From a virus, in IMG/VR virus record IMGVR_UViG_3300048851_000098, positions 1-64,000 of that record: a DNA stretch of 64,000 nucleotides. The stretch is one strand, 5' to 3'. Within the stretch, counting starts at the first letter, position 1; the number at the start of each line of letters is the position of its first letter. Below, in pieces: positions 35,755-42,238 of the stretch. The position numbers and the translations under genes are program-made. The notes beneath the pieces are model-generated. The model searched no databases and had not been told where the DNA came from. It saw nothing but the letters and a program-made list of their open reading frames with translations.

Positions 35755-35836
35755 GCCGGGAAGGCCCCAATGGTGGGGCACCTGACTGTAAATCAGGCGT
35801 CTCTGACAACGGCAGGTTCGATCCCTGCTCCCGGCA
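35755..35836 (+). tRNA. tRNA-Tyr(GTA)
   Basis: cctga-ctGTAaa-tcagg. Confidence 0.92.
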
Positions 35837-36071: not shown

Positions 36072-36596
36072 ATGACCGCTCTTCTCGAAGAGATGACGAC
36101 CAGAATCGACAGTCGTATGGAGGAGCTTCAGCCGCTCGTCCAGGAGTACGGCGAGTTGGCCGAGGCCAAGGCTCGCCTGACCGGCAGAGAGGTCAACGTC
36201 TCCCTGTCTCCCGCGCGTCGTCGCGGCCGCCCGAGCGCCAAGGACGGATCGGCTCCCCGCGCCGGCAAGCGCACCGACATGGTGATCGCTTACCTGCGCG
36301 AGCATCCGGACGGTGCCACGGTCAATCAGATCGTGGAGGGCACGGGCACGTCGCTCAACTACACCTACGCGATCGTCCGCGATCTCGTGGACGCGGAGCC
36401 GCCCGTCGCCAAGCGCGCGGAGGGCAGAGTGGTCCTGATCGACCCCAACTACCGTTCGCCGAGCGAGGACGAGAACAAGGGCGACGAGGGGAACAGCGAT
36501 GGCGACTCGACGCAGGGCGAGCAGAAGCCCGACGAGACGCCGGCCCCCGACAAGGCCAAGCCCGCCGCGAGAGCGAGAGCGACCAGCAGAAAGTGA
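36072..36596 (+). CDS. Coiled-coil plus winged-helix DNA-binding protein
   Basis: N-terminal coiled coil, RRRGRP AT-hook-like motif, VIAYLREHPDGATVNQIVEGTGTSLNYTY wHTH. Confidence 0.75.
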   Translation: MTALLEEMTTRIDSRMEELQPLVQEYGELAEAKARLTGREVNVSLSPARRRGRPSAKDGSAPRAGKRTDMVIAYLREHPDGATVNQIVEGTGTSLNYTYAIVRDLVDAEPPVAKRAEGRVVLIDPNYRSPSEDENKGDEGNSDGDSTQGEQKPDETPAPDKAKPAARARATSRK

Positions 36597-36601
36597 TCTC
36601 C

Positions 36602-36648
36602 TAGCGGCTCGCTTGTAATCACTCAGGCGAGCCGCTAAGATCCTTTTT
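36602..36648 (+). terminator. Terminator hairpin overlapping a TTGTAA-17-TAAGAT promoter candidate
   Basis: tagcggctcgctt/aggcgagccgcta stem followed by ccttttt. Confidence 0.65.
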
Positions 36649-36732: not shown

Positions 36733-36734
36733 TA

Positions 36735-36979
36735 CTGGTTATATCGTTGATATGGTCAGAACTACCCCCGAAAGGTAAGAGCGGGCCACGTCCGGGTACC
36801 CCGAGGCCGGACAACAATTTCATAGTGTCCCGAGAGCGGGTAGCTGACGGTAGGAGAAATCCGTACTAAGGTCCGACTCCGGATATCTGTACGTGACAGA
36901 GAAATTGCCTTCGGGAACCGATACACGGAATGATCGGATCGCGGACAAATGTGGGGGTGCGTCCACTATAAAAACGCAC
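36735..36979 (+). ncRNA. Unassigned ~245-nt structured RNA with 3' pseudoknot
   Basis: Two GAAA tetraloops, a cUUCGg loop, several helices, H-type pseudoknot gtgg/ccac plus gtgcgt/acgcac. Confidence 0.65.
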
Positions 36980-36983
36980 ACTC

Positions 36984-37059
36984 GCCCCGTTGGTCTAGTT
37001 AGGCTTAGGACGCCTGCCTCTCACGCAGGAGATCACCGGTTCAAATCCGGTACGGGGTT
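36984..37059 (+). tRNA. tRNA-Glu(CTC)
   Basis: cctgc-ctCTCac-gcagg. Confidence 0.92.
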
Positions 37060-37323
37060 TAGGGAATTGGAAAGCCAACTAATCACAAAGCGCGAGCGTT
37101 TCTAGAGCGACTGCGGCGTGCGTCATTAGAGTAGGAGCTATCGATTCCCGATCTCGGAATCGGATTCCTCTTACCTTGCCTTTCCTCTAATGGGTCTGGC
37201 TGGGAAGATCCCCACGCAGCCCTCTGGCACCGTTCCAATGGGATTCGGCATTGCCATTCCCGGAGCAACGCTTTGAGGTCGGTCGGCATACGACTAGAGG
37301 AATCCGATTCCATCTTCTGCGAA
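37060..37323 (+). ncRNA. Unassigned ~260-nt structured RNA
   Basis: Perfect 16-bp long-range helix 37156-37171/37296-37311; crossing 8-bp helix 37124-37131/37185-37192. Confidence 0.6.
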
Positions 37324-37380
37324 GTGGCGTTTGGCCGGACTTGGTAGCCGGTGTAAACGGGTTCGATTCCTGGCGTCACG
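37324..37380 (+). ncRNA. Anticodon-less mini-tRNA (57 nt)
   Basis: Acceptor gtggcgt/gcgtcac, one D-like hairpin, T arm cggg-TTCGATT-cctg. Confidence 0.65.
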
Positions 37381-37383
37381 CTT

Positions 37384-37542
37384 ATGAAATTCAGACCAAT
37401 CGACGGCATGGCTGTAGAAGTTGATGATGAGGAAATCATTGTCAACTATTCGGGCGAAGGTACCGATTTGCTCTTGCATCAGGCACATCTGGCCGATAAG
37501 ATCATCGACAGATGCGTGAGAGCGCATGATTCTGCCCGGTAA
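37384..37542 (+). CDS. Small hypothetical protein (not in the ORF track)
   Basis: MKFRPIDGMAVEVDDEEIIVNY...; stop lies inside tRNA-Thr. Confidence 0.45.
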   Translation: MKFRPIDGMAVEVDDEEIIVNYSGEGTDLLLHQAHLADKIIDRCVRAHDSAR

Positions 37543-37605
37543 GCTTTGTTGGCGAAGCGCTGGTTTTGTAATCCAGTGAGCAGGGTTCGATTCCTTGACC
37601 GGGCG
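37534..37605 (+). tRNA. tRNA-Thr(TGT)
   Basis: ctgg(t)-ttTGTaa-(t)ccag; acceptor gcccggt/accgggc. Confidence 0.88.
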
Positions 37606-37610
37606 CTTGC

Positions 37611-37985
37611 ATGGACAACCCGCGTCGAGATGAACTTGGCAATTACATCTTTCTGCCGCAAACCCGGTTCGATCCCGAACCTTGGGCGAGAGTTCTGCGC
37701 CGCGATCCATGCTCATATTGCGACGGCGCGGGCGGCACTGTAGATCACATCGTGCCGCTGGCTCATGGCGGCGAGAAGGCCGTTTCTGTCAACGGCACCG
37801 GCGCCTGCTCGACCTGTAACAGTCTGAGCCACCAGAAGTCCGACACGCCCCTCCTCCAATTCCTCCTCAAGCGAGCACAGCGGAGAGACGCCTACGAGCA
37901 CTACGTCAGATCCTCTCCGCAGATCACTCACAGATTCTTCACGGAGGAGCAGTTGGAACTTCTACGTCGAGTTGCAGAAAGCTAG
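37611..37985 (+). CDS. HNH endonuclease
   Basis: CSYCD...TVDHIVPLAHGG...GACSTCN. Confidence 0.85.
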   Translation: MDNPRRDELGNYIFLPQTRFDPEPWARVLRRDPCSYCDGAGGTVDHIVPLAHGGEKAVSVNGTGACSTCNSLSHQKSDTPLLQFLLKRAQRRDAYEHYVRSSPQITHRFFTEEQLELLRRVAES

Positions 37986-41542: not shown

Positions 41543-41552
41543 CTGTAACAAT

Positions 41553-41646
41553 GGGCCGGTAGCCAAGGTTAGGACAGGCCACTCCCCGGCAGTGGTAGCT
41601 GTCGGAAGAGAAGGAGTGAAAGCGGGTTCGAATCCCGTCCGGTCCA
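41553..41646 (+). tRNA. Atypical tRNA-Arg(CCG): C33 and a long unpaired variable region
   Basis: Acceptor gggccgg/ccggtcc, cact-ccCCGgc-agtg, canonical T arm, 94 nt. Confidence 0.6.
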
Positions 41647-41647
41647 T

Positions 41648-41677
41648 TTGACACAGACTATGATTCTTGTGTATAGT
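41648..41677 (+). promoter_or_regulatory. SigA-type promoter
   Basis: TTGACA-18 nt-TATAGT. Confidence 0.7.
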
Positions 41678-41791
41678 AGCTCTACCTTCGCAAAAGGTGC
41701 GTTACGAGTAGGTTCTGGAAATTTCTGCAAACCATCAACTGGTTGAGAAACGCCTAAAGTTGCATCGAAGTCAGAATAGATGCAGCTCCGC

Positions 41792-41862
41792 TGCGGATTG
41801 GTGGATTGGTACCACGCGAGGCTCATAACCTTGAGGGACGGGTTCGATTCCCGTATCCGCTA
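41792..41862 (+). tRNA. tRNA-Met(CAT), initiator-like
   Basis: cgagg-ctCATaa-ccttg; U1:U72 mismatch, G2-C71, C3-G70, A73. Confidence 0.85.
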
Positions 41863-41936
41863 TGTGCGATAGCTGGCCGCGCATCTCTGAGTGTGCCTTT
41901 GGCATTTATCAGACAAGGGTCTTCGACTCCCAGCTA
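41862..41936 (+). ncRNA. Pseudoknotted/tRNA-like spacer RNA candidate
   Basis: tagctgg/ccagcta, atgtgcg/cgcgcat, tctga/tcaga, gggtc-ttc-gactc. Confidence 0.45.
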
Positions 41937-41940
41937 ACTA

Positions 41941-42012
41941 GGGCGATTGGTGTAATCGGGAACACACTAGCTTTGCAAGCTAGAATTGGGGGTTCGACTC
42001 CCCCATTGTCCA
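41941..42012 (+). tRNA. tRNA-Ala(TGC)
   Basis: ctagc-ttTGCaa-gctag; G3:U70. Confidence 0.92.
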
Positions 42013-42020
42013 TGCCGAGC

Positions 42021-42087
42021 CGGATGTGATGGATTATCTTGGTAAATGGTGCGACCCACCTACCGAGTTCGAGTCTCGGGTATCCAC
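42021..42087 (+). ncRNA. Degenerate mini-tRNA (5-nt anticodon loop)
   Basis: Acceptor cggatgt/gtatcca, ggtg-cgacc-cacc, T arm ccgag-TTCGAGT-ctcgg. Confidence 0.55.
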
Positions 42088-42238
42088 CGCAATTGATTTG
42101 CTCGGCAATCTAAATCCACAAAGGAGGCGAATCATGCTGAAGCGCCTGCTTGTCCTTAGGACAAGCTAGCCTCAGTCGAAGGGACGGATGAACCGTCTCT
42201 AGTGCCGGCTGGGGCGCCCCGAAAGGGGGTGAAACAGC

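Follow-up and report, generated by a model that had tools for sequence, protein, structure and literature searches.

Introduction

Stable RNAs derived from the spacers of tRNA operons include the species 1 and species 2 RNAs of phage T4 (rnaC and rnaD), E. coli RtT and 3'ETS-leuZ. Processing stems for RNase III, for which about two helical turns of double-stranded RNA serve as the criterion, are known from rRNA operons and from T7 early transcripts. In MALAT1-mascRNA, a tRNA-like element lies 3' of a stable helix, and RNase P cleavage sets the 3' end of the upstream RNA. At the DNA level, MITEs and the mycobacteriophage mobile elements (MPME) are short elements bounded by terminal inverted repeats.

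Here we describe a 264-nt spacer (37060-37323, plus strand) in the tRNA array of an uncultivated phage. The analysed window is a stretch of 64,000 nt, bases 1-64000 of the 124,171-nt IMG/VR virus record IMGVR_UViG_3300048851_000098, which is estimated to be 85% complete. We propose, with a probability of roughly 35%, that these 264 nt are a spacer of the phage tRNA array, non-coding and specific to this lineage, rather than a folded 260-nt riboregulator, and that, with the rest of the spacer unstructured, a symmetric stem may act in cis on the tRNA precursor, as a leader element or in its processing or stability; in this proposal we infer the transcription, the processing sites and the identity of the factor. 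Two explanations at the DNA level, namely palindromic protein-binding sites or a relic, come close behind and are nearly as likely.

By analogy, the spacer may work most like the RNAs derived from tRNA-operon spacers, the stems that bracket stable RNAs, and MALAT1-mascRNA. Like the tRNA-operon spacer RNAs, it is non-coding, lies between co-oriented tRNA genes on the tRNA strand and is a candidate for release by the enzymes that mature the flanking tRNAs. Unlike T4 species 1 and 2, RtT and 3'ETS-leuZ, with which it shares no sequence or Rfam similarity, it carries a dyad-symmetric perfect stem. As in RNase III processing stems, a long-range perfect duplex brackets an internal segment of a putative polycistronic stable-RNA precursor, and its two-fold symmetry would suit a homodimeric enzyme. 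However, the helices, of 16 bp without coaxial extension here and 10 bp at a second locus, are shorter than is usual for a classical RNase III substrate, which counts against a leader function, and among the phage proteins no RNase III, dsRBD or RtcB family is encoded. As in MALAT1-mascRNA, a tRNA-like element lies 12 nt 3' of a predicted stable helix and an RNase P cut would set the upstream 3' end, whereas the setting here is bacterial or phage, the tRNA-like element is putative and the helix has no end protection of the triple-helix type. With MITEs and MPME, the repeat shares a small size (here 156 bp), terminal inverted repeats, a possible 4-5-bp flanking duplication and an intergenic site in a phage, yet it differs from them in occurring as one full copy and one 38-bp hairpin, between which the tips are not conserved.

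A relationship to Y RNAs (YrlA, RF02553) is suggested by the phage encoding Ro60 together with YrlA-like RNAs and by the shared architecture of a stem plus a tRNA-like module. [quoted passage not shown] Whereas known Y RNAs are located within ~4 kb of Ro60 on the same strand (PMC4201824), the focal locus lies 42 kb from Ro60 on the opposite strand (plus versus minus). A Y RNA identity, failing by model match, motif, topology, and Ro60 distance and strand, was rejected.

Genomic context of the spacer

ARAGORN and Rfam place 27 tRNA genes at 34.6-42.0 kb, every one on the plus strand, interspersed with small ORFs and two HNH endonuclease genes and followed downstream by DnaB and primase genes. 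The focal 264 nt, on the strand shared with all 27 tRNAs, form the first part of the 474-nt interval from tRNA-Glu(ctc) to tRNA-Thr(tgt). The tRNA-Glu gene (36984-37059, plus), which has no encoded CCA, is called by both ARAGORN and Rfam (RF00005, 59.9 bits) and is indeed the 5' boundary that the original prediction had named. On the 3' side, beyond a putative tRNA-like element described below, lies a 52-codon ORF (37384-37542, plus) with gene-like codon usage (codon score +0.27) and no Pfam family, which overlaps by 9 nt the start of tRNA-Thr (37534-37606, plus; ARAGORN and Rfam), the next canonical tRNA. An HNH endonuclease gene (37611-37985, plus; Pfam PF01844, E = 6.7e-6) follows within the array and is a sign of mobile DNA in its long spacers. 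Rfam searches of the array region at the gathering score and at E<=5 returned tRNAs alone.

Elsewhere in the array, Rfam recognises an 82-nt tRNA of the long-arm type at 35755-35836 (47.7 bits) that ARAGORN missed and that may be the otherwise missing tRNA-Tyr. A permuted 'tmRNA*' call by ARAGORN at 41553-42204 covers several tRNA genes and is probably spurious, and the 'tRNA-Arg(ccg)' at 41552-41647 (94 nt) scores just 35 bits in Rfam. The array also holds, within 36072-36637, a GC-rich (67%) ORF of 174 aa (36072-36596) with a weak IclR-type HTH match and a long acidic/basic tail, for which we found no PHROG family and no paralogue in the genome; a terminator-like 14-bp hairpin stands after it, 22 nt before tRNA-Lys.

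A 16-bp inverted repeat built from two palindromes

The central feature of the spacer is an inverted repeat of 16 bp (37156-37171 / 37296-37311), whose arms are 100% complementary and 124 nt apart, just as originally described. Two perfect inverted repeats of at least 16 bp within 300 nt occur in the genome, compared with ~0.05 expected from 20 first-order Markov genomes. The repeat is therefore not due to chance, and it alone exceeds chance among the features that the original prediction had listed. If the focal strand is transcribed, the long-range helix would dominate the fold, with pair probabilities in the Boltzmann ensemble of 1.0 for 15 pairs and 0.87 for the innermost pair. The remaining long perfect inverted repeats of the genome lie at 106477-106553 (17 bp, 43-nt gap) and 98293-98341 (14 bp, 21-nt gap).

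A property that had been overlooked is that each arm is itself a near-perfect palindrome, expected by chance about once in 4096. Specifically, arm 1 (37156-37171, plus) holds the palindrome GGAATCGGATTCC and arm 2 (37296-37311, plus) holds GGAATCCGATTCC, reading GGAATC-G-GATTCC and GGAATC-C-GATTCC, respectively, that is, the 13-mer GGAATC-S-GATTCC. This palindromy makes the two arms not only inverted but also direct copies of a single dyad-symmetric motif, and an RNA helix formed by them would be two-fold symmetric. As direct copies, they also accord with a repeat at the DNA level, the scenario that the original prediction had set against itself. At the focal locus, only the inner side of the palindrome has further complementarity, of 3 bp (TCT/AGA).

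Genome-wide, the string GAATCSGATTC occurs three times, compared with ~0.06 expected, and the 11-nt palindrome core has four copies in total, three exact and one with a single mismatch. We also considered that the arms might be noteworthy as GANTC (CcrM/HinfI) sites and rejected the idea, since GANTC is over-represented throughout the genome (711 versus 483 expected) and its local density merely ties with that of another region.

A putative tRNA-like element 3' of the stem

From the stem, a 12-nt linker (AUCUUCUGCGAA, 37312-37323, plus) leads to a 57-nt element (37324-37380, plus), in which a 7-bp acceptor stem with two G-U pairs, a central hairpin and a UUCGAUU T arm can be drawn by eye. The central hairpin can be read in two ways. 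Taken as a D arm with the loop ACUUGGUAG, it leaves no anticodon arm; aligned with tRNA-Pro genes, it becomes an anticodon arm with the loop CUUGGUA (UGG) and leaves no D arm. The tRNA-like fold has a predicted energy of -19.2 kcal/mol and lies 3.5 kcal/mol above the MFE rod (-22.7 kcal/mol). The element is called neither by ARAGORN (standard or -mt) nor by the Rfam tRNA model RF00005 at E<=5. In the mini-tRNA that had been placed at the 3' boundary, an acceptor stem and a T arm are thus seen only by eye. With its acceptor and T arm, the element is a plausible candidate substrate of RNase P.

Outside the window, a lone perfect T-arm hairpin (ACGGG-TTCGATT-CCCGT; 94263-94283, minus) directly follows a stop codon. 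Although 20 of its 21 nt are identical to the mini-tRNA junction, it consists of just that hairpin and was rejected as a second mini-tRNA.

The duplex core recurs beside a second tRNA-like gene near Ro60

The third copy of GAATCSGATTC lies at 77710 and has a partner, GAATCCGATTg, 18 nt away, with which it forms a 10-bp hairpin (77711-77720 / 77739-77748). Among the 84 perfect inverted repeats of at least 10 bp, this is the one that shares a 10-mer with the focal repeat, against an expectation of 0.001, and at both loci the central bases are G in the first copy and C in the second. On the minus strand, the hairpin lies downstream of a TTGACA-N17-TAGAGT box and ~45 nt 5' of a tRNA-like body. Outside the 10-12-nt arms, the two loci are unalignable.

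The tRNA-like gene at this locus (77490-77671, minus) has a 7-bp acceptor stem (ACGCGGG/CCTGCGT), a D arm, a T arm and an AGGTC variable region, and its anticodon stem (CCGGG/CCCGG) carries an insert of ~125 nt in place of the anticodon loop. It is called by neither ARAGORN nor Rfam and lies 1.3 kb downstream of Ro60. The same duplex core accordingly stands 5' of two different non-decoding tRNA-like elements and of no canonical tRNA.

The Ro60 (TROVE) gene itself (79022-80704, minus, outside the window) is preceded by three Y-RNA-like elements in a region that extends to 81253; two of them (80.9-81.3 kb) match Rfam YrlA with 42-43 bits, compared with a gathering score of 69. The closest cellular Ro60 homologues with a source name are labelled as Solirubrobacteraceae MAGs, which gives a weak hint of the host.

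A candidate leader stem of a tRNA precursor

In the reading that we favour, the array would be transcribed as a polycistronic precursor, in which the two motif copies pair into a two-fold symmetric 16-bp stem. This stem would close off 124 nt and end 12 nt before the tRNA-like element, thereby forming the leader module of a tRNA-like unit. With tRNA-Glu on its 5' side, the tRNA-like element on its 3' side and the tRNA strand in common, release of the spacer by tRNA processing is plausible: from established tRNA-processing biochemistry, an RNase P cut at 37323/37324 together with 3' processing of tRNA-Glu would free it. The stem may then block 3'-5' exonucleases, or it may provide a point of entry for a dimeric factor specific for double strands, such as the RNase III of the host.

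The second locus bears on this reading in several respects. Because the same 10-12-nt helix core recurs in the leader of another non-decoding tRNA-like gene, 40 kb away, sequence-specific recognition of the duplex would account for it better than mere pairing, and the palindromic form of the duplex suggests that a dimeric factor, itself two-fold symmetric, recognises it. Additionally, the 3-bp extension on the inner side and the G/C central bases at both loci fit pairing, or inverted duplication, better than independent operator copies. Each copy is part of a leader that shares its strand with the tRNA-like unit downstream of it; the second follows a promoter-like box and the first lies inside the array, and this placement favours the pairing reading.

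Other features of the spacer weigh against a leader stem. The perfect repeat contains no G-U pairs, so that neither strand nor RNA level can be inferred from it. An RNA helix alone leaves the self-palindromy of the arms unexplained, a symmetry that fits dimeric protein sites on DNA equally well. Furthermore, the element is absent from the compact arrays of relatives, its 3' tRNA-like neighbour is recognised by no tRNA model, and the interior and the 5' domain give no structure signal.

A functional stem would mean that phage tRNA arrays contain cis-elements dedicated to treating tRNA-like non-decoding RNAs unlike canonical tRNAs, and it would link the tRNA array to the Ro60/Y-RNA machinery of the phage. 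A more ambitious version, which we consider quite unlikely, is that precursors of non-decoding tRNA mimics in this Ro60/Y-RNA phage are marked by a sequence-specific leader helix with two-fold symmetry (core GAAUCGGAUUC / GAAUCCGAUUC), at which a dimeric factor that times the release of the mimics docks or cleaves. The helix would then belong to a hitherto undescribed phage system in which tRNA decoys are tied to RNA quality control.

Protein-binding sites or a relic at the DNA level

The palindromy of the arms is most directly accommodated if GGAATC-S-GATTCC is a palindromic site for a dimeric DNA-binding protein (a regulator, recombinase or nuclease), two such sites lying beside an odd tRNA-like gene at each of two loci. 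Two copies of a palindrome are automatically inverted repeats, so that RNA pairing would be a by-product. The 13-nt palindrome in each arm and the four copies of the 11-nt core, against ~0.06 expected, point this way, as does our reading of the sequence that the conserved part is the palindrome core and not the outer tips. At 77.7 kb, moreover, the copies lie between a sigma-70-like promoter and the tRNA-like gene, and the winged-helix-like ORF 500 nt upstream of the focal locus, with its weak HTH_IclR match below the curated cut-off, would be a candidate for such a protein. However, no promoter-like site was found near the focal pair, and neither of the distances between site centres, 143 and 29 bp, corresponds to a whole number of helical turns. 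Independent sites also leave unexplained the inner-side 3-bp extension (1/64) and the G/C complementarity of the central bases at both loci. Near the second locus the ORFs have no Pfam family and include no paralogue of the upstream HTH-like ORF, and none of 80 other Ro60 phage loci contains the motif. We regard such sites as a serious, if tentative, alternative.

Just as tenable is a relic without function, in which a recent inverted duplication, or the remnant of a miniature palindromic or mobile element, arose from tRNA T-loop-like sequence in a recombination-prone array and any transcript is degraded. In line with such an origin, strings resembling a T loop plus stem occur at 37142 (TCGATTCC), 37160 (TCGGATTCC), 37303 (TCCGATTCC) and 37362 (TTCGATTCC), and by our reading the 264 nt show a several-fold enrichment of the pentamers GGAAT and ATTCC. 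On either side of the repeat stand ATCTC and ATCTT, a possible target-site duplication with 4 of 5 positions matching (~1.6% by chance), and the 156 bp of the repeat are a MITE-like size. The array carries HNH genes and long spacers, compared with spacers of 10-20 nt in relatives; the interior is unstructured, and the collections that we searched hold no homologue. On the other hand, neutral decay should not leave 16 of 16 positions paired together with an identical 10-12-nt core at a second, otherwise unalignable locus, and conservation does not extend to the tips, the part that transposases read. The number of copies is just two, and no transposase is present. No family of MITE copies was found in the viral or prokaryotic collections, including the genomes of 185,579 species; the second locus shares the inner 10-12 nt only, and no target-site duplication was found at the 77.7-kb hairpin.

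Should the repeat be a DNA-level site or a relic, the finding would be an ordinary one, and would warn that hairpin-rich, GC-balanced spacers look 'ornate' by eye without exceeding shuffles.

Predicted folding and coding potential

The original prediction had described the 264 nt as a discrete, structured regulatory RNA of ~260 nt that toggles between the long-range helix and alternative pairings. All of the strings that it quoted were located to within 1 nt of where it had put them. Specifically, cattagag/ctctaatg is complementary at 37124-37131 / 37185-37192, the local gattcc/ggaatc hairpin is present as a 7-bp hairpin CGAUUCC/GGAAUCG (37142-37148 / 37156-37162; 37142-37162 overall, plus), the GGAAUCG strand of which is shared with arm 1, and the inner hairpins ggctg/cagcc, aatgg/ccatt and gtcg/cgac lie at 37198-37202 / 37217-37221, 37237-37241 / 37254-37258 and 37278-37281 / 37291-37294, respectively. 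Alternative pairings therefore exist in the sequence. Transcription would reach the local hairpin ~135 nt ahead of arm 2, which makes a transient kinetic alternative conceivable; the hairpin could form first during transcription but would be negligible at equilibrium.

The predicted ensemble does not bear out switching. While the long-range helix has a probability of 1.0, the crossing 8-mer and the local hairpin are both at ~0, so that there is no bistability, and the two mutually exclusive folds of comparable stability that characterise a riboswitch-like switch were not found. When the arms are masked, a single 8-bp stem (cattagag/ctctaatg) is left, compared with a shuffle mean of 0.52, and 33% of shuffles hold at least one, which puts the crossing 8-mer at chance level. 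Nor is the rest of the spacer elaborately folded. The 124-nt interior enclosed by the stem (37172-37295, plus), which has a pyrimidine-rich start and hairpins at chance level, has a z-score of -0.62, and the 96-nt 5' part (37060-37155, plus), without significant structure or coding signal, has one of -0.92; both are no better than shuffles and indistinguishable from their reverse complements. Since the parts alone are unstructured, it is most likely the repeat that accounts for the z-score of -2.27 obtained for the stretch as a whole. Additionally, no Rfam family matched 37060-37323 at the gathering score or at E<=5, among riboswitches, group I/II introns, ribozymes, GOLLD/ROOL and tmRNA, and no conserved core resembling a ligand pocket is definable without homologues. 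A discrete switching RNA is therefore very unlikely. Taken together, the long-range helix, predominant in silico, and the tRNA and tRNA-like flanks stand from the original description, and the switching and the ornate 260-nt fold find no support.

The spacer is non-coding: all six frames have negative codon-usage scores when compared with 33 long genes of this phage, and a six-frame tblastn of the spacer against the genome and all fetched loci gave no match. That a peptide is the real feature is hardly credible. On the minus strand, 120 codons are open across the element (37083-37445, 120 aa), but this frame has a codon score of -0.17, compared with +0.25 on average for genes, belongs to no Pfam family and shows no translated similarity within the genome or to relatives. 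It is also antisense to the tRNA-like element, in an array that uniformly uses the plus strand. A small plus-strand ORF of 28 codons (37190-37276) has no Shine-Dalgarno sequence.

Search for relatives of the spacer

No homologue of the spacer was found in phages, IMG/VR, JGI metagenomes or GTDB. A blastn search against 50,697 phage records gave tRNA-sized matches alone, and exact or gapped patterns for the repeat pair, the mini-tRNA and the tRNA-Glu D region found nothing in IMG/VR. The short-gap pattern had two matches in IMG/VR, a coding stretch of D/S repeats and an AT-rich terminator, both of which were rejected as unrelated. The motif was absent from 80 further Ro60-bearing viral loci (893 kb). 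One motif match in the record of a relative was likewise rejected: the surrounding sequence is a long open stretch that offers neither a tRNA nor a hairpin as context, and a partner arm was not seen in its vicinity.

In the GTDB genomes (185,579 species, 596 Gb), the long-gap pattern was not found, and the short-gap pattern returned four unrelated hairpins (Runella, Oscillospiraceae and two Gammaproteobacteria MAGs), which we judged to be background for 596 Gb. In the Oscillospiraceae MAG (L033, 5423-5460), the 5' arm of the hairpin and its flanks (CTCGGAATCGGATTCCTCT, 19 nt) are identical to 37153-37171 of the window; given the different host and GC content, this identity is probably coincidental.

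The phage belongs to an uncultivated clade. Its DnaB has more than 200 homologues, many of them on contigs of 105-125 kb; the nearest DnaB is 69% identical (Logan only), and the best match from a cultured phage is 28% identical. At 24 loci reached through DnaB (IMG/VR and JGI), the arrays, where present, are compact or truncated and show no similarity to the spacer. Relatives with 56-59% DnaB identity (L008, 57-1716; L005, 1-610) carry tRNA arrays upstream of DnaB with spacers of mostly 10-20 nt, and the long spacers of the present phage consequently look like lineage-specific insertions.

The neighbouring long spacer of the array, between tRNA-Lys and tRNA-Glu (36733-36983, 251 nt), has halves with z-scores of -0.85 and -1.05, no better than shuffles. 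Across tRNA-Glu, it shares complementarities of 10-13 nt with the focal spacer, at 36911-36923 / 37139-37151 and at 36772-36781 / 37168-37177.
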